From positions 1-55,961 of IMG/VR virus record IMGVR_UViG_3300033814_000040: a DNA stretch of 55,961 nt. One strand, written 5' to 3'. The translations under genes were made by a program, and so were the position numbers. The notes under the pieces are model-generated. The model did no database searches. It was not told the origin of the DNA and worked only from the letters and a program-made list of their open reading frames with translations. This DNA comes from a virus. Taxonomy: Duplodnaviria > Caudoviricetes. Below are positions 6,017 to 24,157 of the stretch, one piece after another (position 1 is the first letter of the stretch; every line of letters begins with the position of its first letter).

Positions 6017-6223
6017 ATGCTCGTTCCCGCTGGTCACGCATGGCGTTCCTGCCCGCGGTTGAAAAGGGAGCGGACGTATCTCCGACGAAGGATCAGCCCG
6101 GCGCGGGAGAAGGAATTGGAGATACGAGAGTGCGATTGCTGTCCCGTGGGAACCAGCAGGGCGTACTCGCTGGCGATGCACCACCGGAAGCAGAACGCGA
6201 TGGCGATGGAGGTTCAAGCGTGA
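6017..6223 (+). CDS. small hypothetical protein
   Basis: GGAG RBS; GTGA overlap with the next gene. Confidence 0.45.
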   Translation: MLVPAGHAWRSCPRLKRERTYLRRRISPAREKELEIRECDCCPVGTSRAYSLAMHHRKQNAMAMEVQA

Positions 6224-6651: not shown

Positions 6652-7543
6652 CGATGTCCCGGAACCTCCCGACGATGCGATCACCCAGCCCGGGGACCTC
6701 TGGATCCTGGGCGAGCACCGGCTGCTATGCGGCGACAGCGGGAGTGCCGAGGACGTGGACCGGCTCCTTGCGGGGGCGAATATTCACCTGGTGAACACCG
6801 ACCCCCCATACAACGTCAAGGTCGAGCCTCGGAGCAACAACGCGATCGCCGCCGGGAACAGCTCGTTCACGAAGACGCATCACCAAAGCCTGGATCTCGC
6901 CCGTCATCCGGGGAAGGCCAAGCCCACCACCAGGAAGATGCGGCCCAAGGACCGGCAGTTGATGAACGACTTCGTCTCCGACGAGGAGTTCGGCCGTCTG
7001 CTCCGTGCCTGGTTCGGCAACATCTCCCGGGTCCTGGAGCCCGGGCGGGGTTTCTACATCTGGGGCGGGTACGCTAACTGCGGCAACTATCCGCCCGTGC
7101 TCAAGGAGTGCAAGCTCTACTTCTCCCAATCGATCATCTGGGTGAAGGAGCACCCGGTCTTAACCCGAAAGGACTTCATGGGAAATCACGAGTGGTGCTT
7201 TTACGGCTGGCGCGAGGGCGCGGCGCACCACTGGTACGGCCCCACCAATGCGGTCGACGTCTGGTCAGTGAAGAAGGTCAACCCCCAGAGCATGATCCAT
7301 CTGACCGAGAAGCCGGTGGAGCTGGCCGTCCGCGCGATGGAGTATTCCTCTCGCCGTGGCGAGAACGTCTTGGATCTGTTCGGGGGGAGCGGGTCGACCC
7401 TGATCGGGGCCGAGCAGACGGGACGCAAGAGCTTTCTCATGGAGCTTGATCCTCCATACTGCGACGTCATTGTCACCCGGTGGGAGAACTTCACGGGCAA
7501 GAAGGCGGAGCGGATCCCGTGGGCCCAGGCCGCAGAGGCGTAG
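6617..7543 (+). CDS. DNA N6-adenine/N4-cytosine methyltransferase (beta class), C-terminal half of the fusion
   Basis: GDLWILGEHRLLCGDS, catalytic TDPPY, SAM-binding VLDLFGGSGSTL; no independent RBS. Confidence 0.9.
   Translation: MGGVGGGLTDPDDVPEPPDDAITQPGDLWILGEHRLLCGDSGSAEDVDRLLAGANIHLVNTDPPYNVKVEPRSNNAIAAGNSSFTKTHHQSLDLARHPGKAKPTTRKMRPKDRQLMNDFVSDEEFGRLLRAWFGNISRVLEPGRGFYIWGGYANCGNYPPVLKECKLYFSQSIIWVKEHPVLTRKDFMGNHEWCFYGWREGAAHHWYGPTNAVDVWSVKKVNPQSMIHLTEKPVELAVRAMEYSSRRGENVLDLFGGSGSTLIGAEQTGRKSFLMELDPPYCDVIVTRWENFTGKKAERIPWAQAAEA
6619..6637 (+). repeat. G8-T-G10 homopolymer tract at the frameshift junction
   Basis: Sequence GGGGGGGG T GGGGGGGGGG read directly. Confidence 0.9.
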
Positions 7544-9025: not shown

Positions 9026-9529
9026 ATGCCATTGTGTGGCGAAAAACAACTTGAGGAACGGGAACACCGCAAGCAGATGTTCCTCGAGGTCTACCAGAAA
9101 AAGGGCGGGATCATCTATCTGGCCTGCGAAGCGGCCAATATCGGGCGCACGACGTATTTCGAATGGATGAAAAAGGATTCGCAGTTCGCAGCATCGGTCA
9201 GGGAACTCGACGATTACCTGCTCGACTTCACCGAGTCGAAGCTCATGGCGAAGATCCAGTCCGGGAACCTGACCGCCATGATTTTCTACCTCAAATGCAA
9301 GGGGAAGAAGCGCGGCTGGGTCGAGCGCCAGGAGGTAACCGGGGCAGACGGAATCCCGATGAACCCCGGGGTCTCCGCCGAAGAGGAGAACCGTTTAAGG
9401 AGCCTATCGGTTGACGATCTCAAACGCATTCGCGACATCATCCGGAATGGAAACGGAGACGCCGCAGGCCCCGCCGCTGGACCTGATCGAGAAGCTGATC
9501 GCGGAGAAGAGCCTCCACGAGTTCATTAA
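9026..9529 (+). CDS. terS: terminase small subunit
   Basis: HTH ACEAANIGRTTYFEW..D..F and AMIFYLKCKGKKRGWVERQEVTG; immediately upstream of TerL. Confidence 0.8.
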   Translation: MPLCGEKQLEEREHRKQMFLEVYQKKGGIIYLACEAANIGRTTYFEWMKKDSQFAASVRELDDYLLDFTESKLMAKIQSGNLTAMIFYLKCKGKKRGWVERQEVTGADGIPMNPGVSAEEENRLRSLSVDDLKRIRDIIRNGNGDAAGPAAGPDREADRGEEPPRVH

Positions 9530-10874
9530 GCAGGCGTGGCACATCATCGAGCCGCTGGCGCCGTTCGTCCCGGGCTGGCACATCGAATCCCTCTGCGAGC
9601 ATCTCGAAGCGGTAAGCGCGGGGCAGATAACCAGGCTCATCGTAAACGAACCGCCGCGGACCATGAAGTCCGGGCTGATCTCCGTGTTCTGGCCGACGTG
9701 GGAATGGGCAACACGACCCACAACCCGGTGGATGTTCTCGTCTTACTCCATGGGGCTGTCGGTGCGCGATTCGCTCCGCTGCCGGCGCATCATCGAGAGC
9801 TCCTGGTATCAGGCCCGGTGGGGGCGCGTGTACCAGCTGACGGGCGACCAGAACGTGAAGAGCCGGTACGAGAACGACAAGGCCGGGTATCGACTTGCAA
9901 CATCCGTTGGGGGGTCAGTCGTCGGAGAGGGCGCCGATATCCTTGTCGCAGACGATCCGAACAACCTCGATGAGATCCATTCGGACCCGGTACGAGACGG
10001 AGTGAATCGCTGGCTCGACGAGGTATGGAGCACCCGCATGAACGACCCGAAGACGGGCCGGCAGGTCGTGGTCCAGCAGCGCGGCCACGAGCGGGATGCC
10101 ACGGGACACCTACTATCCCAGGACGTAAAGTGGGAACACATCTGCCTCCCGATGGAGTTCGACGGGATGCGGCGATCAACATCCCTGGGCCCGTACGATC
10201 CTCGGAAGGAATCGGGCGAGCTCCTCTGGCCGGAACGATTCGACGCGACGGTGCTGAAAGATCTGAAAACTCGCCTCGGTTCCTATGGCGCCGCTGGGCA
10301 GCTGCAGCAGGCGCCGTCGCCGGCAGGGGGAGGGATCTTCAAGCGGGAGCACTGGCGGTACTACAAGCAGCGTCCGGCGAAGTTCGACGAGATCATCCTC
10401 TCCTGGGACATGGCCTTCAAGGGGCTGAAAGATTCCGACTTCGTGGCTGGTGGCGCGTGGGGACGGATCGGCGCGGACAAGTACCTGATCGACCGCGTGA
10501 AGGACCAGATGGGATTCGCCGCCTCGCTTCAGGCTGTACGGCAGATGAAGGCAAGATGGCCAGGCGCCGTGGCCGTGCTCGTCGAGGACAAGGCCAACGG
10601 GCCGGCCATCATCGAAACGCTGACCAAGGAGATCCCCGGGGTGATCGCGGTCGACCCGGAAGGCGGCAAGGTCGCCCGGGCATACGCCATCCAGCCGGAG
10701 CAGGAGGCGGGAAATATCCACCTTCCGGACCCGACGATCGCGCCATGGGTCGGGGAGTTCGTCGAGGAATGCTCGTCGTTCCCGCGCGGGGCCAACGATG
10801 ACGAGGTGGACCAAATGACCCAGGCCATCAACTATCTCCGGAACCGGGCAATGCCCGGCTTCGCTTTCGCGTAA
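9447..10874 (+). CDS. terL: terminase large subunit
   Basis: Walker A-like PPRTMKS, Walker B ILVADDP, nuclease SWDMA...EDKANG...FPRGANDDEVD. Confidence 0.95.
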   Translation: METETPQAPPLDLIEKLIAEKSLHEFIKQAWHIIEPLAPFVPGWHIESLCEHLEAVSAGQITRLIVNEPPRTMKSGLISVFWPTWEWATRPTTRWMFSSYSMGLSVRDSLRCRRIIESSWYQARWGRVYQLTGDQNVKSRYENDKAGYRLATSVGGSVVGEGADILVADDPNNLDEIHSDPVRDGVNRWLDEVWSTRMNDPKTGRQVVVQQRGHERDATGHLLSQDVKWEHICLPMEFDGMRRSTSLGPYDPRKESGELLWPERFDATVLKDLKTRLGSYGAAGQLQQAPSPAGGGIFKREHWRYYKQRPAKFDEIILSWDMAFKGLKDSDFVAGGAWGRIGADKYLIDRVKDQMGFAASLQAVRQMKARWPGAVAVLVEDKANGPAIIETLTKEIPGVIAVDPEGGKVARAYAIQPEQEAGNIHLPDPTIAPWVGEFVEECSSFPRGANDDEVDQMTQAINYLRNRAMPGFAFA

Positions 10875-10888
10875 GAGACGGAGGAGGC

Positions 10889-13081
10889 ATGCCGACAGAA
10901 GACATGGGCCTGTTCGCCGGGCTGGAGGCGGGACTCCTGGAAAAGGCGGCTGCGCAAGCCTCGGCGCCGGCCAACCTCGTCTCTGCTGTCATGTCCGCCC
11001 TGCAGTTCGGGTCGGGTGGCGGGCAATCGTACGCGCAGCTCGTGGATGCCTACAAAGGCTGGGTTTATACAAGCGTCGATAAGATCGCCAAGACGATCGC
11101 GACCCGGCCGCTGCGACTCTACACGCTCCGAAAGAAAAATGGGCAGAAGCTGCTCGATCCGAGCGGGGTGCTCGTTCAATTCAAGCAGATCGGAGTAGCG
11201 TCCGAACGCACGTACGCCTTGAAAAATATGGGGCTGGAGAAGCGGGAGGTCCTCGAACACCCATTCCTCGATCTCATCCATCGGCCCAATGGCATTATGT
11301 CCCGGATGATTCTGTGGTATGAGACGATGATCCGGATGGAGCTCGGGGGATTCTGCGGCTGGTACCTGCCGTCCAACGGGCTCGGGCTGCCAGGCGAGAT
11401 CTGGCCGCTTCCGCTTACCAAGGGCGCGACGCTGAAACCCCGCGTCTCAGGCAGCATGCAGATCGAGGAGTGGATCTACCAGGACGGCTCGGTCCGCAAA
11501 TCATTCAAGCCCCAGGAAATCCTCCCACTGAAATACCCGAATCCTTCCTCCCCTTGGGAAGGCTTCTCCCCCCTCATGGCGCAGCAGCATCCCTACGACA
11601 TCGACCTGTTCCTCATGCAGCAGCAGCGTGCGCTACTCAAGAACATGGGGATCCCGGGGGTCCACCTTCACACGGATCAACCTCTCACCAAGGAGCGCCT
11701 GACAGAGATTCTCGAACAGATCCGGGAGCAGTGGGGCGATGCTACGCGGTCCGGTCGTCCGATGGTAACTCACTCGGGATTGGCCGCAGAAAAAACCGGC
11801 TGGTCGAACAGGGAAATGCGCATCGGCGAGATCGCCAAGTACTCCCGCGAGAAGACGATCACGTCCTATGACCTCTCCGAGGCGAAGCTGGGACTGGAGG
11901 TTCCTTCCAACCGGGCGAACATGGAGGTCCTGGACGAGACCTTCGAGAAGGAGTGCATCGGGCCGAAGTGCACGCTCCTCGAGGAGCAGATCAACACGTT
12001 CTTCCTGCCGCGGTACGACCAGGGAATCTTCGCGGAGTTCGATCAGCCCGACATCGGAGACAGGGATTTCAATCTGCGCGAGACGGAGATGGAGCTGAGG
12101 AACTTCGTCACCGTTGTAAACGACGTGCGGGCCAGGAAGGGCTTGCCGCCAGTGCCGTGGGGCAGTAAGCCGTGGATTCCGCTCGGGGTATCCCAGGAGG
12201 GAAGCGAATCGGCGCCTCCGCCACCCCCGAAAGGGAATGGTGTCGAAACGCAAGAGGAAAAGGCGTCCCGCACCGACCGGCGCAACCGCCGCTGGCAGCT
12301 CTTCATCTCCCGGACCGCTCCCTGGGAGCGGTTGATGACCGGTCAGATGCAGGGGTACTTCAAGCACCAGGGCGAGGAGGTCATCGCGCGTTTGCACCGG
12401 CTGGGCCACCAGGTCGAGGCGCAGTACGCCGGCTGGTCGAGGAAGGCTGTCCAGAAGCACATCGCAGAAAAAGGCGTGGGCGACAATATCAACATCGACA
12501 AGAAGGCGGAGGCCGCACGGCTGAAATTACTGTTCACTCCGCCCGTTACGACGATGGTGGGGAATGGCGGCGCCCGCGTGTTGCGGGAACTCGGTGCGGC
12601 CGTCGTCTTCAACGTCAACGACCCGAAGGTGAAAAAATGGATCGGGACGAGGATGGATATGTTCTCCGAGGCCGTCGCCGGCACGACGTTCGACGACATC
12701 AAGGTCATCCTGCGCCAAGGGTTCTCCGAGGGAAAGCCGCTCTCCGCGATCGCGGACACGCTGCGGGAGAAGTTCGACTCCTACGACAAGTACCGCGCTC
12801 CGCTTATCTCCCGCACGGAGGTAATGGCAGGGAACAATATGGCGGACATTCTGGCGATCCGGCAGGCGGGGATTGAGGAGAAGGTCCTCAAAACTTGGAT
12901 CACCGCGGGTGATGAGAATGTCCGGCCGACGCACATGGATGCCGGCGCCAGGTACGAAGAAGGGATCCCGATCGGCGAAATGTTCCAGGTCGGAGACGAC
13001 GAGATGGATGCCCCCGGGAACGGAAGCGATCCGGCCGAGACGATCAACTGCCGCTGTGCCATGGGATACGAGAAAGCATAA
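10889..13081 (+). CDS. portal protein fused to a MuF/SPP1 gp7-like head morphogenesis domain
   Basis: HK97-type portal (VYTSVDKIA, EIWPL, GFSPL, NDVRARKGLPP), Pro-rich linker, then RAPLISRTE...KTWITAGDENVRPTH...INCRC. Confidence 0.9.
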   Translation: MPTEDMGLFAGLEAGLLEKAAAQASAPANLVSAVMSALQFGSGGGQSYAQLVDAYKGWVYTSVDKIAKTIATRPLRLYTLRKKNGQKLLDPSGVLVQFKQIGVASERTYALKNMGLEKREVLEHPFLDLIHRPNGIMSRMILWYETMIRMELGGFCGWYLPSNGLGLPGEIWPLPLTKGATLKPRVSGSMQIEEWIYQDGSVRKSFKPQEILPLKYPNPSSPWEGFSPLMAQQHPYDIDLFLMQQQRALLKNMGIPGVHLHTDQPLTKERLTEILEQIREQWGDATRSGRPMVTHSGLAAEKTGWSNREMRIGEIAKYSREKTITSYDLSEAKLGLEVPSNRANMEVLDETFEKECIGPKCTLLEEQINTFFLPRYDQGIFAEFDQPDIGDRDFNLRETEMELRNFVTVVNDVRARKGLPPVPWGSKPWIPLGVSQEGSESAPPPPPKGNGVETQEEKASRTDRRNRRWQLFISRTAPWERLMTGQMQGYFKHQGEEVIARLHRLGHQVEAQYAGWSRKAVQKHIAEKGVGDNINIDKKAEAARLKLLFTPPVTTMVGNGGARVLRELGAAVVFNVNDPKVKKWIGTRMDMFSEAVAGTTFDDIKVILRQGFSEGKPLSAIADTLREKFDSYDKYRAPLISRTEVMAGNNMADILAIRQAGIEEKVLKTWITAGDENVRPTHMDAGARYEEGIPIGEMFQVGDDEMDAPGNGSDPAETINCRCAMGYEKA

Positions 13082-13102: not shown

Positions 13103-14335
13103 ATGCCGATCGAGTACAAAATTTACCAGGCCGAGGTAAAGGCGTTCGACGACGAGAACCTGATCGTCGAGCACTTCATCTCCACGGAGCACAAGGACCG
13201 CGGCGGCGACATCATGCGCGCCAAGGGAATGAAGATCGTGGGAAAGCCCGTCGTGCTCTTGCTGCATGGCCGCGGTCCGATGGGAGGTGAGCCGGTCGCC
13301 AAGCCGCTATCGATCGGCGTGGGCGAGTTTAAGGGGCAGCCGGGTGTCCTCGCCAAGACGCAATTCTTCCCGGACGACGTGGGGAGGCGACTCTACGCGA
13401 AGACGAAGGGCGGCTTCTTTCCGAGCTGGTCCATCGGCTACATGGTGGACGAGGCGAAGGACCTGTTGCGGGAAGGAAAATATGACGGGCGCGATGTCAC
13501 GAAGTGGACGCTCTTGGAGTACAGCCTAGCAGGCGTGCCGATGAATCCGTTCGCGCAGACGATCAAGGAGTTTCTGGATCAGACGGAGGCTGATGCCGAC
13601 TACCTCGGAGGCAAGGTCGCCGAAGGTCGCGGCTGGTTCGGCTTCGTTGACGTGAAGGAATGCAAGGAATGCGGGCAGGGGTGCGAGAAGCACGTCGATC
13701 CTCCATCCGAGGAGAAACCCTTTGCCAACGAGCACGCCTGCCGCGTGAAAGACCCGGACCAGTTCCCGAAGAAGCGACGGGAGAACAATAAGTTCGGCGA
13801 CGGGATCCACGCGATATGGGGCATCAAGGATGACAAGGCGCACCTCCAAGCGATCCGCTTCTCCACCGACAAGTTCACCGCGGACGCTGCCAAGAAGTGG
13901 GCGAAGGACCACGACCATACGTGCATCCTGTTCGAGCCGGCGACAGGCAAGGAGGAGCAGTACCCCGATGCCGAGCCGGAACTGCTGGCGAAAATCGCCG
14001 AAGAAGAGAAGCACCTCACGATCGAGATAAGGGTCACAGGCCTCGAAGAGGCGATCGCCAGCATGAATGAGGCGATCAAGACGATGACGGAAACCTACAT
14101 GAAACTGGAACCGCTCTTGAAAGCCCTCCCGCCCGAACCGGATGGCGGGGAAAAGGGTGACGAGGAGCATCACGACAACCCGCCGGAGAAGAAAACGCCG
14201 CCCCGCCTCGTGATCGTGCGCGAAGAGGACACGCCGGAAGCGAAACAGAAGGCGCAGATCCTCGCGGCAATGAGGGAGGTGTACGTCGAAGTCGTTAAGC
14301 AAGAGATCGACCGTATGAAGGGCCGCGTGCCCTAA
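13103..14335 (+). CDS. HK97-type prohead protease with C-terminal extension
   Basis: DRGGD, PVVLLLH, SWSIGY, LLEYSLAGVPMNP. Confidence 0.85.
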   Translation: MPIEYKIYQAEVKAFDDENLIVEHFISTEHKDRGGDIMRAKGMKIVGKPVVLLLHGRGPMGGEPVAKPLSIGVGEFKGQPGVLAKTQFFPDDVGRRLYAKTKGGFFPSWSIGYMVDEAKDLLREGKYDGRDVTKWTLLEYSLAGVPMNPFAQTIKEFLDQTEADADYLGGKVAEGRGWFGFVDVKECKECGQGCEKHVDPPSEEKPFANEHACRVKDPDQFPKKRRENNKFGDGIHAIWGIKDDKAHLQAIRFSTDKFTADAAKKWAKDHDHTCILFEPATGKEEQYPDAEPELLAKIAEEEKHLTIEIRVTGLEEAIASMNEAIKTMTETYMKLEPLLKALPPEPDGGEKGDEEHHDNPPEKKTPPRLVIVREEDTPEAKQKAQILAAMREVYVEVVKQEIDRMKGRVP

Positions 14336-14363
14336 CACCCACTACAAACAGCCGAAGCGAATG

Positions 14364-14390
14364 AAGGCCCCTTGCGGGCCTTTTTTCGTT
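14364..14390 (+). terminator. terminator-like hairpin upstream of the capsid gene
   Basis: AAGGCCC-CTTGC-GGGCCTT followed by a T run. Confidence 0.65.
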
Positions 14391-14412: not shown

Positions 14413-15732
14413 ATGACGGCACCCAATCAGGAAATGACAGTGAAATTCGAAGACCTGAAGGGCATCTTCGCCGAGATGCTCAAGACGACTCCGATTCCGG
14501 AGTTGCAGGCGATCAAGGAGGAGATGGCCAGGATCAACAAGCAGTCGCTGTTCCCCACAGGCGACGGGGACATCTTCGAGACCTGCGGGAAGAGCATCGT
14601 CGACCTGGGCTACTACCAGAAGCAGGCGGAGAAGAACACCCAGCGGTTCGTCGACGGCGGCGGGCTGGCGGCCAGGCTCCGCAGCGGGGGCGGGCCGTGG
14701 CTTTCCCTCTCCCCGCTGATGCAGAAGTTCGCCAAGATCGTCGCGACCGGCGGGGACCTCCAGAAGGCGATGGCCCTCGGGATCAACGTCTCCGAATACA
14801 ACGCGGAGGCCCGCGAGCAGTACAAGTCCGTCTTCGGAGAGAAGGCGACGGACTTCCTGTCCACAACCGATGTCGGGCCGCTCGTCCCGACCGAGTTCCT
14901 GGCAACCGTCGTGGAGTTCGCGACCTCGCAGAGCCAGGTCCTCGGGAAACTCTGGCGAGTCCCGATGTCCAGCTTGCTGCTCAAGATCCCGAAGCTGGTC
15001 CAGGCGGCGGGATCGTACTTCGGCGGCGTGCTCCTGTACCACCCCGGCGAGGGCCTGGAGAAAACCCTCACCAAGCCGGAGTTCGACAGTCTGACCTTCA
15101 CGGCGAAGAAGCTCATCGGCCTCGTCGCGTTCTCGGACGAGCTGATCGGCGACTCCGCGATCAACATCATGAACTACACCACGGGGCTCTTCGTCCGGGC
15201 GTTCCAGTACAAGACGGAGGGGGAAGTCCTCTCCGGGACCGGAGCGAACGACCAGATGACCGGGATCCTGACCGACCCGAACATCAACGAGGTCAAGCGG
15301 ACGAACACCGGGGTCGTGAAGTTCTACGACCTCCTGAACCTCGAGTCGGCGCTCGACGAGAACTTCACCGCGCTGACCTTCCTCTCCCGGCGGGCGACGG
15401 TCAACTCGCTGCGGAAGCAGGTCGACGACAACAAGCAGCCCGTGTACCACGACGGGTTCACCACGTTCCTCGGCGCGGGCATGGGTCCGCAGCTCCTGGG
15501 CTACCCGGTCGTCAAGACCAGGAACGTCCCGGCGCTCGGCGTCCGCGGGGATCTCATCCTGGGCGACCTCTCCTTCTACATCTGGGCGATGCGGCAGGAG
15601 ATGACCATCGATACGTCGAGGGAATGGCGTTTCAACCTCGACCAGACCGCGATCCGGTTCGTGGTTCGGCAGGACGGGGCGCCCGGCGTGTCCGAGGCGT
15701 TCGCAGTCCTCGACGACGGCCTGGAGTCGTAG
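14413..15732 (+). CDS. major capsid protein (HK97 fold)
   Basis: GPLVPTEF, GEG...PEFDSLTFTAKKL, SDELIGDS, LLGYPVV, ILGDLS; GGAGG RBS. Confidence 0.95.
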   Translation: MTAPNQEMTVKFEDLKGIFAEMLKTTPIPELQAIKEEMARINKQSLFPTGDGDIFETCGKSIVDLGYYQKQAEKNTQRFVDGGGLAARLRSGGGPWLSLSPLMQKFAKIVATGGDLQKAMALGINVSEYNAEAREQYKSVFGEKATDFLSTTDVGPLVPTEFLATVVEFATSQSQVLGKLWRVPMSSLLLKIPKLVQAAGSYFGGVLLYHPGEGLEKTLTKPEFDSLTFTAKKLIGLVAFSDELIGDSAINIMNYTTGLFVRAFQYKTEGEVLSGTGANDQMTGILTDPNINEVKRTNTGVVKFYDLLNLESALDENFTALTFLSRRATVNSLRKQVDDNKQPVYHDGFTTFLGAGMGPQLLGYPVVKTRNVPALGVRGDLILGDLSFYIWAMRQEMTIDTSREWRFNLDQTAIRFVVRQDGAPGVSEAFAVLDDGLES

Positions 15733-15750
15733 GAGACATCATGATCGACG

Positions 15751-15787
15751 GCCCCCCGGGTTCTTTCCCGGCCCGGGGGGCGCTTTT
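15751..15787 (+). terminator. hairpin/attenuator after the capsid gene
   Basis: GCCCCCCGGG...CCCGGGGGGC followed by GCTTTT. Confidence 0.6.
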
Positions 15788-15800
15788 CAAGGAGGGCGAG

Positions 15801-16019
15801 ATGGGGAAGGTGAATGTGAAGGTCCTCGACCCGAATATCAAGGCGGTGTACGGGGAAACCATGCATGTCCTGGAAGAGGATGTCGCCAAGGGCGTCGCGT
15901 CCGGGAAGTGGGAAACGATCCCCGAGGTCAAGGAGATGGCTCCCGCGCACGGGAAGATCTATCAGACGAAGGACTTCCTCTCGTACCGGGACGTTTACGG
16001 GGAGGACAAGAAGAGGTGA
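15801..16019 (+). CDS. small post-capsid protein (putative head accessory), paralogous to the N-terminus of the next gene
   Basis: AAGGAGG RBS; 72 aa; ungapped similarity to residues 5-41 of the downstream glycosyltransferase. Confidence 0.75.
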   Translation: MGKVNVKVLDPNIKAVYGETMHVLEEDVAKGVASGKWETIPEVKEMAPAHGKIYQTKDFLSYRDVYGEDKKR

Positions 16020-17074
16020 TGGTCAGGATGGTGGCCGTCGAGAATATCGACGAGGCGCTGCGTCGCACTTACGGGACGAGGATGCGGATCTCCCGCGACA
16101 AGGCGCTCCTCGGAGAGCGCAAGGGGAAGTGGCGGATCATCGACCCCGCAGAACGCCCATCCACGAAGAGCGCGGCGGAAGTGAGGGTCGCGACCGGAGC
16201 GAAGGAGGCGAGGCGCGTCCGGAAGGCGAGGATCGCCTGGGTGCAGGATAACGCGATCGACTGGAAGGGTGGCGCGGAGTTCTCCGCCCGGCAGGTCATG
16301 GCGGTGGGCGAACAATGCGGGTTCCACATCGAGATGATGACGCCGGCAGGTTTCTCCTCGGACGTCCTTGCGAACGCGGACCTCGTCGTCCTGAACAACC
16401 TCTGGCACTTTTCGGGCGAGCAGATGCGGGCGATCCTGGCCGTCCTGTTCGAGCGACGGATACCGTACGTCAAATACGAGCACGACCACCGGGAGCTGAC
16501 CCGACCGGAGTTCTCCCGCCGGCTGTTCGAGCGCGCCGCGGCGAACGTGTTCCTCTCCCCCGCACACAGGGAGAACCATCGGGAGGCTCTCGGAGCAGCG
16601 GGGGAATGTATTCCGCTGGCGATCGACGTGGACGCCTACCGTCCCGTCCCGGGCGTGGAGCGAGCACTGGGGACCGCCCTGGTCTCCAACGTGCGGACGA
16701 TCAAGACGTGGGAACGGCTGAAAGCCTACGTCTCCGAACACCAGGAGATCCGGTTCACCGTGATCGCCACGAACGGCGTCATCCAGGGAAGGAACGTGAA
16801 GGTGATCCCCCCGGTCCTTCCGGAGAAGATGCCGGAACTCTATTCGGCGCATGAGTTCCTTGTCCACCTCCCGGACGCTTGGTGCGCCGGGGAGCGCATC
16901 GTGTTCGAGGCGGCACTTTGTGGATGCAAGATTGTCACGAACGAGCGGGTCGGACACGCCTCCTGGGGATGGGATCTGACCGATGCGGCCGCGTTGCGAG
17001 AGCGGCTTATTGACGCGCCCTACGAGTTCTGGCGGCTGATAGACGGGATCGTGTCGAAGAGGGCGGCGGCGTGA
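16019..17074 (+). CDS. GT-B (GT4-like) glycosyltransferase with extra N-terminal small domain
   Basis: GGAE, YEHD, VFLS, MPELYSAHEFLVHLP...GERIVFEAALCGCKIVTN. Confidence 0.85.
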   Translation: MVRMVAVENIDEALRRTYGTRMRISRDKALLGERKGKWRIIDPAERPSTKSAAEVRVATGAKEARRVRKARIAWVQDNAIDWKGGAEFSARQVMAVGEQCGFHIEMMTPAGFSSDVLANADLVVLNNLWHFSGEQMRAILAVLFERRIPYVKYEHDHRELTRPEFSRRLFERAAANVFLSPAHRENHREALGAAGECIPLAIDVDAYRPVPGVERALGTALVSNVRTIKTWERLKAYVSEHQEIRFTVIATNGVIQGRNVKVIPPVLPEKMPELYSAHEFLVHLPDAWCAGERIVFEAALCGCKIVTNERVGHASWGWDLTDAAALRERLIDAPYEFWRLIDGIVSKRAAA

Positions 17075-17679
17075 AGGAGTACTGGGACAAGAGGTACGCG
17101 GAACAGGGGCGAAAGACCGTCGGCCACGTTCAGTTCTCGCGGGAGGAGTTCCAGTCCCGCTCCGTCCAAATCGAGCTGCTCGCCGGGCCGATCTTCCTGC
17201 GCGCGTTCAAGAAGGGCGGGAGGATCCTCGACCTGGGATGTGGCTACGGGAGGCTGTCGAAGGTCCTCCTCCAGCTCGGGTACGAGGTGCACGGGCTCGA
17301 CGTTGCCGCATGGGCGATCGAGGAAGCGAAGAAGCATGCGCCGGGGGGCTTCTACCGGACGTACGACGGGATCACGATCCCCTATCCGCAAGGCGAGTTC
17401 GACGGGGTGCTCACCTGGACCGTTCTCCAGCATGTCCCGCCGGGGGAGATCCTGAAGGTCGCCCACGAGATCGTGCAGGTGCTCAAGCACGGGGGGGAGC
17501 TGTTCTGCCTGGAGAACACGACGGCGGGAGTTATGGACAAGGAGCACATCTGGTTCCGGAGGTACGAGGATTACCTGTCCCTCTTCCGCCTGCTCACTCC
17601 GACGATGAAGTCAGAGTACCCGGACCTGGACGGGACCGGGGAAGTGCACACGGCGATGGGGTTCGCGAAATGGTGCTGA
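17071..17679 (+). CDS. class I SAM-dependent methyltransferase
   Basis: YWDKRY, ILDLGCGYGR, GLDV, FDGVLTWTVLQHV, VLKHGG. Confidence 0.9.
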   Translation: MKEYWDKRYAEQGRKTVGHVQFSREEFQSRSVQIELLAGPIFLRAFKKGGRILDLGCGYGRLSKVLLQLGYEVHGLDVAAWAIEEAKKHAPGGFYRTYDGITIPYPQGEFDGVLTWTVLQHVPPGEILKVAHEIVQVLKHGGELFCLENTTAGVMDKEHIWFRRYEDYLSLFRLLTPTMKSEYPDLDGTGEVHTAMGFAKWC

Positions 17680-18461
17680 TCGTCTCGACCTTCGGAGCGA
17701 CCGATCGTTATCCTGACGGGGAGATGATGCGGAAGACCTTGAACGCCTTCCTCGGTTCGCTCCGCCGGCAGACCTCGGGTGCGTTCCATCTGTTTCTGGT
17801 CGGCCACGACCTGCCGCCCGTCTCGCTGGCGGAGCCGTGGATCTCGTGGACCTCGATCTCGGACGGGAACGGCGGATCGTACATCCACCGCTATCTTCCG
17901 CAACTGGCAACGGACCCCCTGTTCTTCGACAGCCGCGGCATGGCCGACAAGATCACGGACATGGGGTTGAAAACATACCGGGCCGTGATCGAGGCAGGGA
18001 GGTGGGCACACGAACGTGGGATCAAGAGCTTCTGGCTTCTGCGGATGGACTCGGACGATCTGCTCTGCAAGGGGATGGTGGCTCTGCTCATGTCCCTCGA
18101 TCCCGGGAAGATCCGGGCGGTATTCAACCGGACGTGCCACATGTACGACCCGCGCACAGGGGAGATCGCGGAGAAAAGGCATCCATGGTCCACGACCGTG
18201 AACGCGCTCCATTACCGGATGTCGGAAGCTGGCGCGTTCGACCCTGAATGGTTCTACCACTGCCGGGACCATACGACGTTCTGGCAGACGGTCAAGAAGG
18301 ACGGGATCAAGGCGATGGAGGTGGACCACGCGCTATGCATCACGACGAACACCGGGAACTCGATCTCCGGCAGGCCGGAACTCGGGAAGGAAGAGGGCGC
18401 GAGGAAGGTGAGGCTCACGAAGGAAATCGCGGAGAGGTACGGACTCAATGGATTCGCGTGA
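17670..18461 (+). CDS. GT-A fold (GT2-like) glycosyltransferase
   Basis: LGSLRRQT...FLVGHD, LLRMDSDDLL (DxD motif). Confidence 0.7.
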   Translation: MVLIVSTFGATDRYPDGEMMRKTLNAFLGSLRRQTSGAFHLFLVGHDLPPVSLAEPWISWTSISDGNGGSYIHRYLPQLATDPLFFDSRGMADKITDMGLKTYRAVIEAGRWAHERGIKSFWLLRMDSDDLLCKGMVALLMSLDPGKIRAVFNRTCHMYDPRTGEIAEKRHPWSTTVNALHYRMSEAGAFDPEWFYHCRDHTTFWQTVKKDGIKAMEVDHALCITTNTGNSISGRPELGKEEGARKVRLTKEIAERYGLNGFA

Positions 18462-19083
18462 GAAAGTCAGGGAGCTCGCGAGTCAGAATGACCGGATCGC
18501 GATCGCCGCGTGCCTGCCGATGATCTACGAGGAGGCGCGGGCTGCGAAGCCGAACCTGATCGTCGAGCTCGGCGTGTCGAGGGAAGCGCTCGCGAACAAG
18601 GTCCTTACCTTCGTGGCGGAAGAGTTCGATTCGACGTTCGTCTCCTGCGACCTGTATGACTTCTCTGACGTCTGCCGTTACCCACGCTGGTACTTCTACC
18701 AGGTCGAGGCGAGGATGCTCGCGACCAGGTGGCGGCAGACTTGCGCGGACCTCGGCGTGCCGGCGAACGTGGATCTTCTCTTCGTGGACTGCGACGAGAA
18801 GTACGAGACGACCAGGGGGATCCTCATGCTGTGGGGCTCGTTCCTCAAGGAGGGATCAACCCTCATGCTCCGCTGCACGAACCTCAAAAAAGAGCTCTCC
18901 TATGCGGACGGGCGCAGGACGAACCTCGGGTGGGACAACAAGCGCGGGGTGATGCGAGCGATCGAGGAGGATCTCGGCGCCTACTTCGACGAAGCGAGGC
19001 CGTTCTCCGGGAAGATCAACGGGTACGATGTTAGGCACATCCCCTGGGGCGCCGGGCTCACGGTCTTGAGGAGGGAGAAGTGA
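18448..19083 (+). CDS. SAM methyltransferase (Methyltransf_24-like)
   Basis: LIVELGV, VSCD, VDLLFVDCDEKYE, FLKEG. Confidence 0.7.
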   Translation: MDSREKVRELASQNDRIAIAACLPMIYEEARAAKPNLIVELGVSREALANKVLTFVAEEFDSTFVSCDLYDFSDVCRYPRWYFYQVEARMLATRWRQTCADLGVPANVDLLFVDCDEKYETTRGILMLWGSFLKEGSTLMLRCTNLKKELSYADGRRTNLGWDNKRGVMRAIEEDLGAYFDEARPFSGKINGYDVRHIPWGAGLTVLRREK

Positions 19084-20213
19084 TCCCCCTCTTCCACCCG
19101 CCGGCGCAGGACGTATGCCTCATGCTTCGGGAGCTCGGGGACACCCTCTCCGGGAGATGGTGGGGGCAGGGGCCGAAGGTGGACAGGTTCGAGAAGGAGT
19201 TCGGGGAGAAGTTCGGATTCCCGCGCTGCGTCTTCGTGAACTCGGGGACGGCCGCGCTCCATCTCGCCTACGAGCTCGCGGAGGTGGGCCCGGGAGATGA
19301 GGTGATCGTGCCTGTGCTCACGTGCACGGCGACTTGTCACCCGATCCTGCTCCTCGGGGCGAAGATCGTGTTCGCGGACGTGCGCAGGGACACGCTCACC
19401 GTCGACCCGGAAGACGTGGCGAGGAAGGTCACATCCAGGACAAGGGCGATCATCGCGGTCCACCTCGGGGGGATCGTGGCGGACTCGGAACACCTCAAGG
19501 AGATCGCGAGGGACAAAGATGTCGCGCTCATCGAGGACGCGGCGCAGGCGCTCGGGGCCCCTGGGGTCGGATACGGGGACTTCACCTGCTTCTCGTTCCA
19601 GGCAATCAAGCATATGAGCACCGGGGATGGTGGGATGCTTGTCGTGCGAACCGAATACGGGGAGAAGATGGCTCGGCGGCTCCGGTGGTTCGACATCGAC
19701 CGCGAGGCGAAGAAGGAGAAGGGATGGCAGGCATGGGACCGGCGAGGGATCACGTGCGACCAGGAGAGGCCCGGGTACAAGTATCAGGGGAATGACATCG
19801 CCGCGTCGATCGGCCTGGCGGCGCTCAAGACTGTCGACGCCACGCTCGGGCACCGGGCAAGGCTCGCCGACCTCTACCGCAGGCTCCTCTCCGGGGTCTA
19901 CGGGATCCGGCTCCTCGCGGATGAGCCTTCCTCGTACTGGCTGTTCATGGTCCGCGTTCTGTGGGACCGCGACAGGCTCGCGGAATACCTCGCCGCGGGG
20001 GGCGTCGAGACGAACGTCGCGCACGTGCGCAACGATCTGTTCACGGTGTTCGGAGGAAGAAGGCAGCCCGGGCTTCCCGGCATGGACGAGGTGGAACATC
20101 AGTACCTCTGCCTGCCGATACACGACCGGGTGTCGGCGAACGACGTGGGGTATGTCTGCGGACAGATCAAGCTGTGGAGCATGAAAGCCGTCGTCGTCGC
20201 GGAGAAGGGATGA
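19080..20213 (+). CDS. DegT/DnrJ/EryC1/StrS PLP-dependent NDP-sugar aminotransferase
   Basis: VNSGTAALHLA, GDEVIVP, IEDAAQALG, FSFQAIKHMSTGDGG (PLP lysine). Confidence 0.95.
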   Translation: MIPLFHPPAQDVCLMLRELGDTLSGRWWGQGPKVDRFEKEFGEKFGFPRCVFVNSGTAALHLAYELAEVGPGDEVIVPVLTCTATCHPILLLGAKIVFADVRRDTLTVDPEDVARKVTSRTRAIIAVHLGGIVADSEHLKEIARDKDVALIEDAAQALGAPGVGYGDFTCFSFQAIKHMSTGDGGMLVVRTEYGEKMARRLRWFDIDREAKKEKGWQAWDRRGITCDQERPGYKYQGNDIAASIGLAALKTVDATLGHRARLADLYRRLLSGVYGIRLLADEPSSYWLFMVRVLWDRDRLAEYLAAGGVETNVAHVRNDLFTVFGGRRQPGLPGMDEVEHQYLCLPIHDRVSANDVGYVCGQIKLWSMKAVVVAEKG

Positions 20214-20214
20214 C

Positions 20215-20958
20215 ATGGTAGACATCACGATCACCACCTACAACCGCTGCGGGATGCTGAAGCGCACGCTGGACGCCCTCTTCTCGACGGTGGACGTGCC
20301 GCACCGAATCTTCGTGATCGACGACTGCTCCACGGACCAGACCCCGGAATATCTCTCGAAGATGAACGGAGACAAGCTGCAATTCGTGGCGCTCTCGAAG
20401 AAGAGAAACGGCGTGGTCTATGGCTTCAACATGCTCTGGAACATGGTGGACTACTACGATTCCTTCCACGGCGCGTTCCCCTATATGTGCTACCTCCAGG
20501 ACGACATGATCGCCACGGAGAAGGGGTGGCTCACGACGATTATTCACGCCTACGAGGAGCTGCAGAACGAGCATCAGATCGGCTTCTTCGGTGGACACGA
20601 CGCGCCGGAGCATCCGGTCCGGGAGATCGTCGAGTGGAAGGGAAGGAACGTCTTCCTGAAGCGTTCCTCTGGGGCGACGAACCTGGTCGCCACGAAGGAG
20701 TTCTGGAGGTCCGTTGGGTATGTGCCGAAGTGCAACCCGGACGGAACGCCGAGGGGATTCCCCGACCGACAGCGCGGGTCGCACATCGACCTGTACTTGA
20801 CCGGCTGCATGTCGGGATCGAGGTTCGTCAGGAACTCCGCCGGCGTGAACTGCTCTGTGAACCAGGGGAAGAATCTCATGGTGATCCCTGGGTTGCTCCT
20901 GCATGAAGGACAGTCGGCCGCAGTGTCTACCTGGCGCGGAAAGGAAGTGAAGGCATGA
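20215..20958 (+). CDS. GT2 glycosyltransferase
   Basis: ITITTYNR, VIDDCSTD, YLQDD. Confidence 0.9.
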   Translation: MVDITITTYNRCGMLKRTLDALFSTVDVPHRIFVIDDCSTDQTPEYLSKMNGDKLQFVALSKKRNGVVYGFNMLWNMVDYYDSFHGAFPYMCYLQDDMIATEKGWLTTIIHAYEELQNEHQIGFFGGHDAPEHPVREIVEWKGRNVFLKRSSGATNLVATKEFWRSVGYVPKCNPDGTPRGFPDRQRGSHIDLYLTGCMSGSRFVRNSAGVNCSVNQGKNLMVIPGLLLHEGQSAAVSTWRGKEVKA

Positions 20959-21875
20959 ACCGGGCGATCGCCTACTTCTCCAACGGCCTCGGGAACTTTG
21001 TGATGATGATGCCTGCGATCCAGGCGCTTCGCGAGATGACCGGAGAGAAGGTGGACCTCTGCCTGCCGGACTCCTGGCGGGACTCGCGGAGGCCCGCGAT
21101 CGAGGCGATATGCGCCGCCTGGGACGTGGTGGGGGAAGTCATCAGCTACCCGAAAGACCCGATCGATCCGGCCCGCTACGCGCACTGGTTCTGGTCCGGC
21201 CACAGCTCGCAGACGGACGCAGTGCTGCCGTTCAAGCACAGGATGCGCCACGTGCCCGCGGCAAAGCCGAATTGGAGGGAGTCCCGCATCCACGAGCGGG
21301 ACCACTACATGGACATCGTGCGCGCGATGGGATGGAGGAACGGGGACGGCGTGCCGAAGGTGGACTTCCCGCTGGCGGAGGGGCCGGCCCTCTCGCTTCC
21401 GAGGCCTGTCATCGGGGTCTGCAATGGAGCGTTCAACACCCCGGCCTGGGAGAAGAAGCATTGGCCGCATTTCAAGGAGCTGGCGACGACCATGCGGCGA
21501 TACTTCAGGGCGTCCGTTGTGGGAGTGGGCGGCCCGGGAGAACTCGACGGGGTTCCCTGCGATGAAAACTTCTGCGGGAAGCTCTCCATCCTGGAGACCG
21601 CGAGGGTGATTCGGCAATGCGACCTGTTCGTCTCCACGGACACCGGCTGTATGCACATCGCCGACATCCTCGGGATCCGGACGATCGCGCTGTTCGGATC
21701 GACGCTGGTTTCCAAGAACGGCCCGCTCGGGGAACAATCCCGGGCGATCGTCTCCGGGCTGGACTGCGTGCCCTGCCTGGAGACGACCAAGTTTTTCACC
21801 TGCCAGCACAACGAGTGCATGCACTCCCTCTCCGTGGGGGACGTGATGCACGAGGCGAGGAGGACGCTCCGATGA
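20955..21875 (+). CDS. GT9 (heptosyltransferase-like) glycosyltransferase
   Basis: GLGNFVMMMPAIQALR, KHWP, DLFVSTDTGCMHIA, IALFG, C-terminal CVPC...C...CM. Confidence 0.9.
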   Translation: MNRAIAYFSNGLGNFVMMMPAIQALREMTGEKVDLCLPDSWRDSRRPAIEAICAAWDVVGEVISYPKDPIDPARYAHWFWSGHSSQTDAVLPFKHRMRHVPAAKPNWRESRIHERDHYMDIVRAMGWRNGDGVPKVDFPLAEGPALSLPRPVIGVCNGAFNTPAWEKKHWPHFKELATTMRRYFRASVVGVGGPGELDGVPCDENFCGKLSILETARVIRQCDLFVSTDTGCMHIADILGIRTIALFGSTLVSKNGPLGEQSRAIVSGLDCVPCLETTKFFTCQHNECMHSLSVGDVMHEARRTLR

Positions 21876-22453
21876 CGATGCTGATCGACGCGAAGACCCT
21901 AATCGGACCGCCGGTCAACGCGTCCGGGGACTACGACGGGCTCTTGGAGGACATCATCGCCGGGGTGCTCGCGGAGGCGGACGATTTCATGGGCGTCTCC
22001 TACCAGGCCGTTACGGACGCGATCGCATACTTCGACGGCGGGAAGTCGACCCTCTATCTCCCGCACGTCAACGTCACCGTCGCCTCCGTGGAAGTGGACG
22101 GCGTCGCGCTCTCCGCGGACGAATTCGTCGTCTACCCGGAGGCCGGGAAGATCGTCGGCAAGACCGGGTCGATCTCCGGATTCCCGACCGCCACGGATTA
22201 TTCGCCGGGAAGATTCGCGGCCGGCCAGCGCAACGTGAAGGTCACGTACAGCGGGGGATACGAAGAGGATGCCTACCCATTGGACCTAAGGAGGAAGCTC
22301 CTGAAGCAGGTCGCCTACGAGTTCAGGCGCCGGAGTGATCCGGGGCTGTCGGCGGTCTCCTACCCGGACGGAACCGTCTCGAAGTTCGCGATCGCAGAAT
22401 GGCTCGAAGACGTGGAAGCCATGCTCTCGCGGAAGAGGAGGATCTTCATTTGA
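21872..22453 (+). CDS. head-tail connector (gp6/gp15-like adaptor)
   Basis: YFDGG..TLYLP, NVKVTYSGGY...P.DL; position. Confidence 0.75.
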   Translation: MTMLIDAKTLIGPPVNASGDYDGLLEDIIAGVLAEADDFMGVSYQAVTDAIAYFDGGKSTLYLPHVNVTVASVEVDGVALSADEFVVYPEAGKIVGKTGSISGFPTATDYSPGRFAAGQRNVKVTYSGGYEEDAYPLDLRRKLLKQVAYEFRRRSDPGLSAVSYPDGTVSKFAIAEWLEDVEAMLSRKRRIFI

Positions 22454-23549: not shown

Positions 23550-23591
23550 AGGGGCCGCACTCCTTTGCCGGGGTGGCGGCCCTTTTTATTT
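23550..23591 (+). terminator. terminator-like hairpin upstream of the tail tube gene
   Basis: GGGCCGC...GCGGCCC followed by TTTTTATTT. Confidence 0.6.
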
Positions 23592-23632
23592 CCACTCAAC
23601 CGCAAATCCCAACCACGAAGGAGGAAAGGAAC

Positions 23633-24157
23633 ATGCCGACTGCACCGAGCACGAGCAATTACTATTTGGGGAAGGGGATCGTAAAGTTCGACCGGTTCGA
23701 CGATGCGGGGCTTCCGACCGGGCTCCGCGACATGGGAAACGCACCAGCCTTCACGATCCTTCCGGTCCTGGAGACGCTCGATCACTTCTCCAGCCGGGAG
23801 GGGATCAAGACGAAAGATCTGTCCGTCGACACGATGATCGGCGCGACGGTGAAGTTCACACTCGACGAGTACGACAAGGAGAACTTGGCGCTGGCACTGC
23901 TCGGAGAGGTGAGCGGGAACCTCATCCACGGCCTCACGAAGCGGAACATCATGGGGGAGCTGCGCTTCTTCGGTGGGAACGACATCGGCCCGAACTACAA
24001 CGCGACCATCTGGAAGGTCAAGATCAAGCCGGTATCCGAGGTCGGATTCATCACGGAAGAGTGGGGGAAGGTCGACTTCGAGGGTGAGGTCCTGTCCGTC
24101 GTGGCGGACCACCCGACCTCGCCGTTCTTCGACCTCCAAGACGTGACGGGGAGCTGA
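23633..24157 (+). CDS. major tail tube protein
   Basis: NYYLGKG...LRDMGN, LDHFSSR.G, ENLALAL; strong RBS; no sheath gene (siphovirus). Confidence 0.8.
   Translation: MPTAPSTSNYYLGKGIVKFDRFDDAGLPTGLRDMGNAPAFTILPVLETLDHFSSREGIKTKDLSVDTMIGATVKFTLDEYDKENLALALLGEVSGNLIHGLTKRNIMGELRFFGGNDIGPNYNATIWKVKIKPVSEVGFITEEWGKVDFEGEVLSVVADHPTSPFFDLQDVTGS

Follow-up and report, generated by a model that had tools for sequence, protein, structure and literature searches.

A small module shared by a capsid-adjacent mini-protein and several glycosyltransferases in uncultured HK97-type phages

The stretch of viral DNA analysed here (the window, 55,961 nt) encodes two homologous copies of a small domain of about 40 residues. 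One copy is a free mini-protein, P0001, and the other forms the N-terminus of the glycosyltransferase (GT) encoded directly after it, P0002. In related loci the domain, which we call the module, is fused to or split from its enzyme and lies in synteny with the gene for the major capsid protein (MCP); it is shared by three unrelated glycosyltransferase designs. We propose, with a confidence slightly better than even, that the module is a portable targeting or adaptor tag that brings unrelated glycan enzymes to a common partner, most probably a virion protein that they would glycosylate.

Results

All features described below lie on the + strand. The MCP gene (14413..15732) encodes an HK97-type protein of 439 aa (Pfam Phage_capsid, 3.8e-40; phrog_10, 4.3e-58) with the C-terminal end ...DDGLES. 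The MCP and the tail tube protein both terminate in Ser, and a terminal Ser is found in 39 of 40 distinct MCP relatives. The end of the MCP gene is separated from the window's module by 66 nt, and between the two genes lies a GC-rich hairpin with a 12-bp stem (15751..15781), followed by CGCTTTTC. The hairpin was not flagged by a terminator scan because it is followed by just 4 T, and the RNA fold of the region 15725-15805 (-35.9 kcal/mol) has a z-score of merely -1.24; an attenuator or a transcript-stabilising element is possible. Downstream of P0002, positions 17071..21875 carry glycan-tailoring genes, recognised through Pfam as a methyltransferase, a 261-aa protein without assignment, Methyltransf_24, a DegT aminotransferase, GT2 and GT9. 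A head-tail adaptor gene (21872..22453; phrog_442, 1.3e-17) marks the end of this glycan insert. Relatives have variable glycan cassettes at the equivalent position, followed by adaptor and tail genes. The portal protein of the window bears a Mu F-like domain.

P0001, read from the sequence and its translation, is a protein of 72 aa encoded at 15801..16019, with a start ATG at 15801, a stop TGA at 16017-16019 and the Shine-Dalgarno sequence AAGGAGG 6 nt 5' of the ATG. Its ten relatives are 72-74 aa long with 64-100% identity, and P0001 itself gave zero matches in Pfam and PHROG. The ORF appears to be coding, judging from its codon composition (GC3 0.86, GC2 0.31), which resembles that of the adjoining genes, and from a comparison with the L004 homologue, which shows 15 synonymous and 15 non-synonymous codon differences (1:1). 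Residues 3-40 (15807..15920) make up the folded domain, delimited by an AF2 model and by a match to an HMM of distant GT N-termini. The model (alignment A4) predicts a beta-alpha-beta-alpha-beta order (E3-8 H11-17 E20-24 H25-34 E37-39) with pLDDT 83-87. The remainder of the protein, residues 44-72, is predicted to be a disordered tail, in which pLDDT falls below 50 at residues 44-55, 58-61 and 67-72. Within this tail, residues 54-67 (15960..16001) hold the motifs YQTKDFLSYRDVYG, delimited by pLDDT and by conservation among clades; motifs of this type are kept in free mini-proteins across many clades. Of 67 domain ORFs, 15 have the pattern L-x-x-[KRED]-[DN]-h-h-G, compared with 4 of 11915 ORFs without the domain, counts that refer to a pattern built from the same sequences. 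We also considered whether 'TKDFLSYRDVYG' in P0001 mimics 'ATDFLSTTDVGP' in the MCP N-arm. This candidate was rejected as probably due to chance, because the MCP sequence is confined to the window's clade and the MCPs and tails of other clades do not co-vary.

P0002 (16019..17074) is a glycosyltransferase of 351 aa whose start codon overlaps the stop of the small ORF (TGATG). It has 130 homologues, and its AF2 model has a mean pLDDT of 92.4. Its residues 4-40 (16028..16138) form the fused second copy of the module, identified from the AF2 model (E4-9 H12-18 E21-25 H26-34 E38-40, pLDDT 90-96) and from a match to a mini-protein of locus L028. A flexible linker follows at residues 43-70 (16145..16228), where the block-wise pLDDT of the AF2 model drops to 68, 52 and 59. 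In the window's clade this linker lacks the YETK and LTREDLFG motifs, both of which are kept in other clades. The first Rossmann strand begins at residue 71 of the AF2 model, and residues 71-351 (16229..17071) constitute a GT-B catalytic core according to Foldseek comparison with the PDB. That comparison gave at least 500 matches at E<=0.001, led by GtfC, PimA, Gtf3 and BshA; GtfC (9htx_B) matched the core at E=2.1e-11, and Gtf3 (3qkw), PimA (2gej) and other GT4 enzymes were also matched. Residues 239-314 marginally pass the Pfam threshold for Glyco_trans_1_2 (27.5 bits, cut-off 25). The Pfam match together with two predicted Rossmann-like domains places P0002 among the GT-B, GT4-like enzymes. 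The enzymes GtfC and Gtf3 of accessory Sec systems (9htx, 3qkw, 4w6q), the best structural matches of the core (TM 0.54), are protein O-glycan transferases, compact GT-B enzymes that work on a protein-linked glycan. In contrast to P0002 they lack an N-terminal module, and with an identity of 12-15% and an rmsd of 6-8 A the match indicates the predicted fold class of P0002 and not its substrate.

Sequence comparison firmly establishes P0001 and residues 1-42 of P0002 as homologues, two copies of a single small domain. BLASTP aligned residues 4-40 of P0001 with residues 5-41 of P0002 without gaps (11/37 identical, 17/37 positive, 24.3 bits, E=3e-4). The Smith-Waterman score of 55 was reached by 0 of 2000 shuffles of P0001, the maxima being 49 against the whole GT and 44 against its first 80 residues. 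An HMM built from 68 distant GT N-termini, with the window's own clade left out and the search space set to 1, matched 10 of 10 proteins of the small family at E-values from 7.6e-13 to 5.6e-9 (none above 7.1e-9), P0001 among them at 3.6e-11. In a six-frame profile scan the N-terminus of the window's GT was recovered at E=2.3e-16, and the domain HMM found nothing further in the window beyond the two copies. Similarly, when the small-protein alignment (24 rows) was compared with the GT alignment (70 rows), hhalign returned a probability of 98.5% (E=2.9e-15) over 61 columns. The homology exceeds the 37 residues aligned by BLASTP, since many GT homologues also have, in their linkers, the tail motifs Y-x-T-K and L-S-x-x-D-V-Y-G and a basic end. 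Both copies have the same predicted order of secondary structure at corresponding positions, a beta-alpha-beta-alpha-beta unit of about 40 residues followed by a disordered stretch. This agreement in fold is not independent of the sequence evidence, because the alignment used for P0001 included GT N-termini.

A sequence-only reading of this DNA had described the GT as carrying an N-terminal copy of the small protein, joined by a linker to a GT-B fold. Its ORF coordinates and ungapped alignment proved correct, the relation holds at the profile level, and the linker is where it was placed. The homology therefore stands and the framing does not: the window harbours two old paralogues of the module. 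Copy 2, fused here, shares 23/40 residues with the second mini-protein of the sister-clade locus L028, where it is free. The same reading had raised the matter of fusions to other enzymes, and our search bore this out with the three glycosyltransferase designs described below.

The module has no family match in Pfam, PHROG or the PDB. A sequence profile search of the PDB gave 0 matches at E<=10, Foldseek gave none at E<=0.001 in the PDB (E>=1.2) or BFVD, and Pfam searches with 46 module sequences yielded single weak matches alone, one of the 46 matching Gins51_C at E=0.01. VIA-align against 48,161 chains reached a best Z of 3.6 among weak and tied rows. The best ESM Atlas score was 0.83, and a viral cluster in which 35% of the members carry Ribosomal_L9_N scored 0.79. 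The commonest VIA-align rows were the N-terminal domain of bL9 (6eri_AH, Z 3.4, rmsd 2.0, 39 aligned) and the B-domain of GINS (5ghr_B, Z 3.6), which like the module consist of a small three-stranded sheet with helices in about 40 residues; their best Z values are 3.4-3.6 over 39-43 residues, the scores are under the tool's meaningful level and there is no sequence relation. The bL9 and GINS domains bind rRNA or replisome proteins. The HMM of the YqbF N-terminal domain (PF14553) gave 0 candidates in the window and was positive on the control genome, Bacillus subtilis; none of the 46 module sequences matched PF14553 at E<=1, and the YqbF structure 2HJQ was absent from the VIA-align and Foldseek rows listed for the module. 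Another row is the C-terminal domain of lambda gpFI (2lsm, Z 2.6, rmsd 2.1, 39 aligned), which is tied with unrelated rows and has no sequence match. Lambda FI is encoded just 3' of the major capsid gene E, and its C-terminal domain, which follows a flexible linker, touches the procapsid. Unlike the role proposed for the module, gpFI acts in DNA packaging and not in glycosylation, and its likeness to the module is a lead only. Because the fold matches are weak and tied, the fold is uninformative on function.

We compared 67 loci, the window and 66 related ones, and found one or more module copies in 55 of them at E<=1e-3; many of the 66 are near-identical, so that these counts overstate independent events. 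One fused copy is present in 29 loci, 27 with nothing else and 2 in which the next enzyme bears an additional one. Two fused copies occur in 7 loci, one free and one fused copy in 5, two free copies with a core-only GT in 5 and one free copy with a core-only GT in 9. The other 12 loci had no copy at this threshold, and some of them show a visibly diverged N-terminal extension. The module is always N-terminal of, or just upstream of, the enzyme gene; core-only enzymes without a detected copy also occur, and the domain-bearing P0166 lies seemingly about 49 genes from a GT, as judged by locus tags. A homologous MCP gene is found upstream of the module or GT in 60 of 67 loci, at a distance of <=400 nt in 49 of the 60. 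The relatives are uncultured, some of their contigs being binned with Desulfobacterales or Sphaerochaeta. On these comparisons the module is a lineage-wide accessory of capsid-adjacent glycan clusters in uncultured HK97-type phages.

A profile search of 1.84 billion representative proteins returned 47 matches, comprising 34 proteins of less than 150 aa, 9 GT-B fusions, 3 GT2-type fusions and 1 spurious repeat protein (P0170, 1268 aa with 8 weak stretches), which was dropped as a DUF7507/DUF11 repeat protein. The GT2-type fusions are P0156, P0167 and P0169, the last of which combines GT2 and GT9 (Pfam); their linkers are short and lack the tail motifs. Additionally, the domain stands at the N-terminus of a second, GT-A-like enzyme family (hhalign 95.8%, E=6.8e-9), whose genes directly follow the GT-B gene in L044, L048 and L052-54; shorter members of that family do not have it. 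A search of viral contigs recovered neither P0169 nor P0156; metagenome contigs gave just GT2 relatives of P0169 at 25-33% identity, and genome contigs gave one unrelated 21% match to P0156. P0156 and the GT-B homologue P0068 are each recorded on an NCBI contig of 19,396 bases, which may be one and the same. The module is fused to three unrelated designs, GT-B, GT-A-like and GT2, the latter two both of GT-A type. Its presence on three enzyme designs fits a portable docking or targeting module.

Discussion

We favour the view that the module is a targeting or adaptor tag. In such a mechanism the module would either be fused to a GT by a flexible linker or be made as separate, translationally coupled mini-proteins. 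It would bring one enzyme after another to the same partner, most probably the virion protein that these enzymes would glycosylate, which would be the capsid lattice and maybe also the tail tube, both built of proteins that end in Ser. The capsid or prohead, proposed by the sequence-only reading, is a candidate on the basis of gene order. A free mini-protein would grip the partner with its folded domain and recruit a catalytic core through its tail motifs. The window, with one free and one fused copy, would then supply two modules per enzyme, matching the relatives with tandem fused copies. The length of the disordered linker suits a tether.

The nearest known counterparts are mycobacteriophages Che8, Corndog and Myrna, in which phage-encoded GTs and a methyltransferase reportedly modify capsid and tail-tube proteins by O-glycosylation of the virion (PMC11600133, PMC12691614). 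The window likewise encodes GTs and a methyltransferase, in a cluster with an aminotransferase between the capsid and adaptor genes. The hosts and the phage lineage differ, and virion glycosylation is a putative trait of the present phage. In contrast to the present locus, neither a shared N-terminal module nor a free mini-protein appears in the passages on mycobacteriophages that we found, and how phage glycan enzymes locate their virion substrates is not addressed in the literature that our searches returned. To our knowledge, a few mycobacteriophages are the only phages in which glycosylation of the virion has been proven, and the proven glycan acceptor sites are reportedly C-terminal. The principle proposed for the module is shared by the lectin domain of polypeptide GalNAc-transferases and by carbohydrate-binding modules, small non-catalytic domains that are attached by a flexible linker and concentrate their enzyme locally on a substrate made of repeats. 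Their folds are unrelated to that of the module, and we know of no case in which they are made as free mini-proteins as well.

An alternative that we consider unlikely is that the modules bind each other and gather the GTs of a pathway into a metabolon, with the free mini-proteins as nucleators and the virion not a direct partner. The sharing of the domain by several enzymes of one cluster (L044, L048, L052-54) is consistent with this, as is the frequency of two copies per locus (17 of the 55 copy-bearing loci). Furthermore, the net charge of the first copy is below that of the second in 18 of 18 two-copy loci, which represent few independent lineages, and this would suit heterotypic pairing. 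The 27 loci with a single fused copy and the 9 with a single free copy, however, offer no pairing mate, and the latter, which have no enzyme-fused copy, argue against a purely homotypic docking of enzyme to enzyme.

A more specific form of targeting, which we regard as quite unlikely, is that the module reads the C-termini of virion proteins. As a minimal beta-sheet domain of PDZ-like kind, it would capture the conserved ...[T/E]-S-COOH ends that the MCP and the tail-tube protein have in common and pass them successively to the GTs that bear or recruit a copy. If this were true, a 40-residue tag would programme a whole exchangeable glycan pathway onto the assembled virion, with the free mini-proteins as adaptors that dock onto core-only enzymes through their tail motif.

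We also weighed a structural role, in which the free mini-protein is a virion component of the decoration or cement type with its disordered tail as glycan acceptor, and the fused forms are tethered beside it or glycosylate their own linkers. The slot directly 3' of the MCP gene, the strong Shine-Dalgarno sequence, and a folded head followed by a conserved disordered tail with Ser/Thr would suit such a protein. We find it distinctly improbable in view of the tail itself: several members replace the Thr of Y-x-T-K with V, K, A, N or E, others have G, A, N, Q, K or R in place of the Ser/Thr of L-[ST]-x-x-D, the conserved tail positions are hydrophobic or charged as in a docking motif, and the linkers of the GT2-type fusions are short and motif-less. 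Because these Ser/Thr positions vary, the tail as glycan acceptor is kept as a minor rival only.

We give little credence to the module as a cis-acting part of the enzyme, which would pack on the core to regulate or stabilise it, the free copies being regulators in trans. Its invariable position before the enzyme and its high pLDDT in the full-length P0002 model agree with this reading, whereas its occurrence with three unrelated catalytic folds (GT-B, GT-A-like, GT2) argues against a specific contact in cis with one core. The long low-confidence linker and the core-only enzymes that lack a detected copy speak against it as well. A predicted complex of P0002 (alignment A2) with P0001 (alignment A4), run without controls, reached scores of 0.01 and 0.09, the mark being 0.32, and so counts neither for nor against binding.

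The sequence-only reading had also suggested that the GT might be packaged in the head. We found no support for this, and regard as very improbable that the module is an encapsidation signal sending the enzyme or mini-protein into the prohead interior: the locus adjoins head-assembly genes and the portal has its Mu F-like domain, but GTs depend on nucleotide sugars from the cytoplasm and would serve no purpose within a capsid, the module showed no similarity to scaffold or protease, and its HMM is silent elsewhere in the window. Finally, chance resemblance, or a functionless and decaying duplicate left locally by the 5' end of the GT gene, is practically negligible despite a pairwise identity of just 30% over 37 residues, given the profile statistics (E=3.6e-11; hhalign 98.5%), the majority of free mini-proteins among the clusters of the 1.84-billion-protein search, the tail motifs that P0001 keeps and the linker of the window's GT lacks, the coding GC3 and the 1:1 ratio of synonymous to non-synonymous differences from L004.

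Returning to the targeting tag that we favour, the locus offers a testable handle on how glycan enzymes may be directed: a module of 40 residues without a database family which, mostly beside the MCP gene, has on repeated occasions been joined to or separated from no fewer than three unrelated glycosyltransferase designs. If the module is an address tag, it would explain how hypervariable glycan cassettes can be swapped and still act on the same particle, and it may be usable for steering enzymes or cargo to phage capsids.

Results

The 72-residue protein P0001 (15801-16019, plus strand) and the N-terminus of the 351-residue glycosyltransferase (GT) encoded next to it (16019-17074, plus strand) share a domain, as the sequence-only reading had claimed. 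Residues 4-40 of P0001 align without gaps to residues 5-41 of the GT with 11 of 37 positions identical (BLASTP, E=3e-4), and the observed alignment score of 55 was equalled by none of 2000 shuffles. Among 8000 candidates scored, 130 GT homologues were identified at E<=0.001; most possess an N-terminal region like that of the window GT, and about 20, of approximately 280 residues, begin directly at the catalytic core. An HMM trained on 68 GT N-termini, all from outside the window's own clade, recovered the small-protein family in full (10 of 10 members; P0001, E=3.6e-11). Furthermore, alignment of 24 free small proteins with 70 GTs by hhalign gave a probability of 98.5% (E=2.9e-15), a firmer relationship than had been proposed. 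The tail of P0001 (Y-Q-T-K-D-F, L-S-Y-R-D-V-Y-G and a basic end) matches linker motifs found in many GT homologues (YET[KR], L-[ST]-R-[ED]-D-[LV]-[FY]-G and YETKG-KKK), and these tail motifs are lost from the linker of the window GT itself. One GT-B homologue of 585 residues, P0038, carries the N-terminal module together with roughly 230 extra residues.

The small ORF is preceded by AAGGAGG 6 nt upstream of its ATG, its stop codon overlaps the GT start (TGATG), and its codon-position G+C (0.58/0.31/0.86) is like that of neighbouring genes. Of its 72 codons, 15 differ synonymously and 15 non-synonymously from those of its homologue in the related locus L004.

In the AlphaFold2 model of the GT (70 sequences, mean pLDDT 92.4), residues 4-40 form a strand-helix-strand-helix-strand domain (pLDDT 90-96), residues 43-70 form a low-confidence linker, and the GT-B core begins at residue 71, in agreement with the linker proposed from sequence. 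Residues 3-39 of the small protein follow the same order of elements (pLDDT 83-87), with a tail disordered from residue 44, in a model that was built on 46 sequences including GT N-termini and is thus not independent of the GT fold. In structure, the catalytic core is similar to compact GT-B enzymes; GtfC and Gtf3, both protein O-glycan transferases, are the top matches, ahead of PimA and further GT4 enzymes. No relative could be assigned to the small domain by fold or sequence. In structure searches with VIA-align the best match was the GINS B-domain (Z 3.6), with many rows for the bL9 N-domain at Z 2.5-3.4 and the lambda gpFI C-domain at Z 2.6; Foldseek returned nothing at E<=0.001 in PDB or BFVD. 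The module had no match to PDB sequences at E<=10 and no usable signal in Pfam, PHROG or the ESM Atlas, and the YqbF Pfam model PF14553 matched neither the module nor the window.

Only 47 matches at E<=0.001 emerged when 1.84 billion representative proteins were searched with the module profile. Of these, 34 were shorter than 150 residues, mostly free mini-proteins with the conserved tail, together with a few that look like fragments and one truncated GT; nine were GT-B fusions, and three were fusions to GT2-type enzymes by Pfam (P0156, P0167 and P0169, the last with GT2 and GT9). The remaining match, a repeat protein, was dismissed as spurious. Additionally, the module was found on a second, unrelated family, GT-A-like, with an invariant D-H-D region and 51 homologues, which is encoded directly downstream of the GT-B and is absent from the window. 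Members of 232-287 residues carry the module at their N-terminus (L044:9219-10007, L048:6689-7513, L052:9219-9980, and also L053 and L054), and members of 172-200 residues do not; the module is missing from the family in five other loci, and hhalign relates this N-terminus to the module at 95.8% (E=6.8e-9). The module-bearing protein P0166 (147 residues) has a 50-residue leader; locus tags appear to place it some 49 genes away from P0049, the module-bearing GT on the same MAG contig (55,308 bases); therefore the module is not always beside a capsid gene.

All six-frame ORFs of 66 related IMG/VR loci were scanned with iterated domain HMMs and the loci classified together with the window (n=67), although many are near-identical and they do not represent 67 independent observations. 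One copy fused to the GT-B was present in 29 loci, two of which carried another on the enzyme that follows; a tandem fused pair in seven; one free and one fused copy in five (the window and L001-L004); two free mini-proteins with a core-only GT and ATGA/TGATG overlaps in five (L028, L031, L034, L045 and L046); and one free mini-protein with a core-only GT in nine. No copy was detected at E<=1e-3 in 12 loci, several of which have a visibly diverged N-terminal extension. At L028:3062-3540, L034:5374-5843 and L046:7738-8207, both mini-proteins and the core-only GT are translationally coupled, with overlapping stop and start codons. In the tandem-fused GTs (L006, L007, L008, L012, L020, L024 and L026) the first copy is diverged (T-T-D-D-G-S-M-V...) and lacks the GKW motif. 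The net charge of the first copy was below that of the second in 18 of 18 two-copy loci. The closest match to the fused copy of the window is the second free mini-protein in the L028 clade, with 23/40 identical residues versus 11/37 for its own neighbour, which indicates that the window locus holds two old paralogues and that copy 2 has undergone fusion or fission between sister clades.

A gene for a homologous major capsid protein (MCP) is found on the same strand upstream of the module or GT in 60 of the 67 loci, and in 49 of these 60 the distance is no more than 400 nt. In 22 sampled loci, varied glycan genes lie between the GT and the adaptor/tail genes, including methyltransferases, GT2, GT9, GT17, GT-D-like, DegT, hexapeptide acyltransferase, epimerase, radical SAM, sulfotransferase and WbqC genes. 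Thus the cassette is variable, and the module-bearing GT is its constant opening gene.

The window genome is that of a temperate siphovirus-like phage (linear IMG/VR record of 55,961 bases, 61% G+C, 74% completeness by CheckV) with an integrase (43433-44494), a tape-measure protein, a major tail protein and an endolysin. On the plus strand, the large terminase (9411-10874), a portal protein (10889-13081; Phage_portal, residues 108-416) to which a C-terminal Mu F-like head-morphogenesis domain is fused (Phage_Mu_F, 603-725), the protease/scaffold (13103-14335) and the HK97-type MCP (14413-15732) precede the small ORF. The GT is followed, in order, by a methyltransferase, a 261-residue protein (17676-18461) with no Pfam or PHROG match, a second methyltransferase, a DegT aminotransferase, GT2, GT9 and the head-tail adaptor (21872-22453). 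GC-rich hairpins flank the MCP gene, one upstream (14363-14383), terminator-like and followed by a T run, and one downstream (15751-15781) with a 12-bp stem followed by CGCTTTTC; they may control how strongly the MCP is expressed relative to the genes downstream. Elsewhere (6040-7540), a ParB-like or nuclease-like protein precedes an overlapping DNA methyltransferase, and phrog_498 matches both ORFs.

Discussion

The module is attached through a long disordered linker or made as a separate polypeptide. Purely homotypic docking of enzyme to enzyme is disfavoured, since nine loci encode no copy other than a free mini-protein next to a core-only enzyme. The attachment of the module to three unrelated catalytic folds likewise speaks against a cis contact that is specific to a single core. 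A common external partner therefore remains. For enzymes that build one glycan stepwise on one substrate, this partner would most simply be the substrate particle. Gene order and the fusion pattern make binding to the capsid plausible; we infer each binding step of this mechanism. The free mini-protein would additionally need to hold the enzyme, and its conserved, hydrophobic-anchored tail motifs would be the natural candidates for this role. Of 67 domain ORFs, 15 contain the pattern L-x-x-[KRED]-[DN]-h-h-G, compared with 4 of 11,915 other ORFs; this comparison is circular, since the same sequences supplied the pattern.

Phage-encoded GTs of mycobacteriophages modify capsid and tail-tube proteins (Freeman et al. 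2023, as cited in PMC11600133 and PMC12691614). In the window, the MCP (...DDGLES) and the major tail protein (23573-24157; ...DVTGS) both end in Ser, as do 39 of 40 distinct MCP relatives from loci L001-L062, mostly in TS or ES. Judged from these termini, the C-terminal Ser of both proteins may serve virion glycosylation as a common acceptor or recognition feature.

A literature search covering titles and some passages found no account of a docking domain that phage glycosyltransferases have in common, and the module is an undescribed family. The sequence-only reading had proposed that the fused domain docks the GT onto the capsid or prohead or packages it in the head. This proposal is supported in part: packaging into the head is unlikely, but the domain sharing noted from the sequence extends further than one enzyme, and the module is a lineage-wide, portable accessory common to the small post-capsid protein and several glycosyltransferases.
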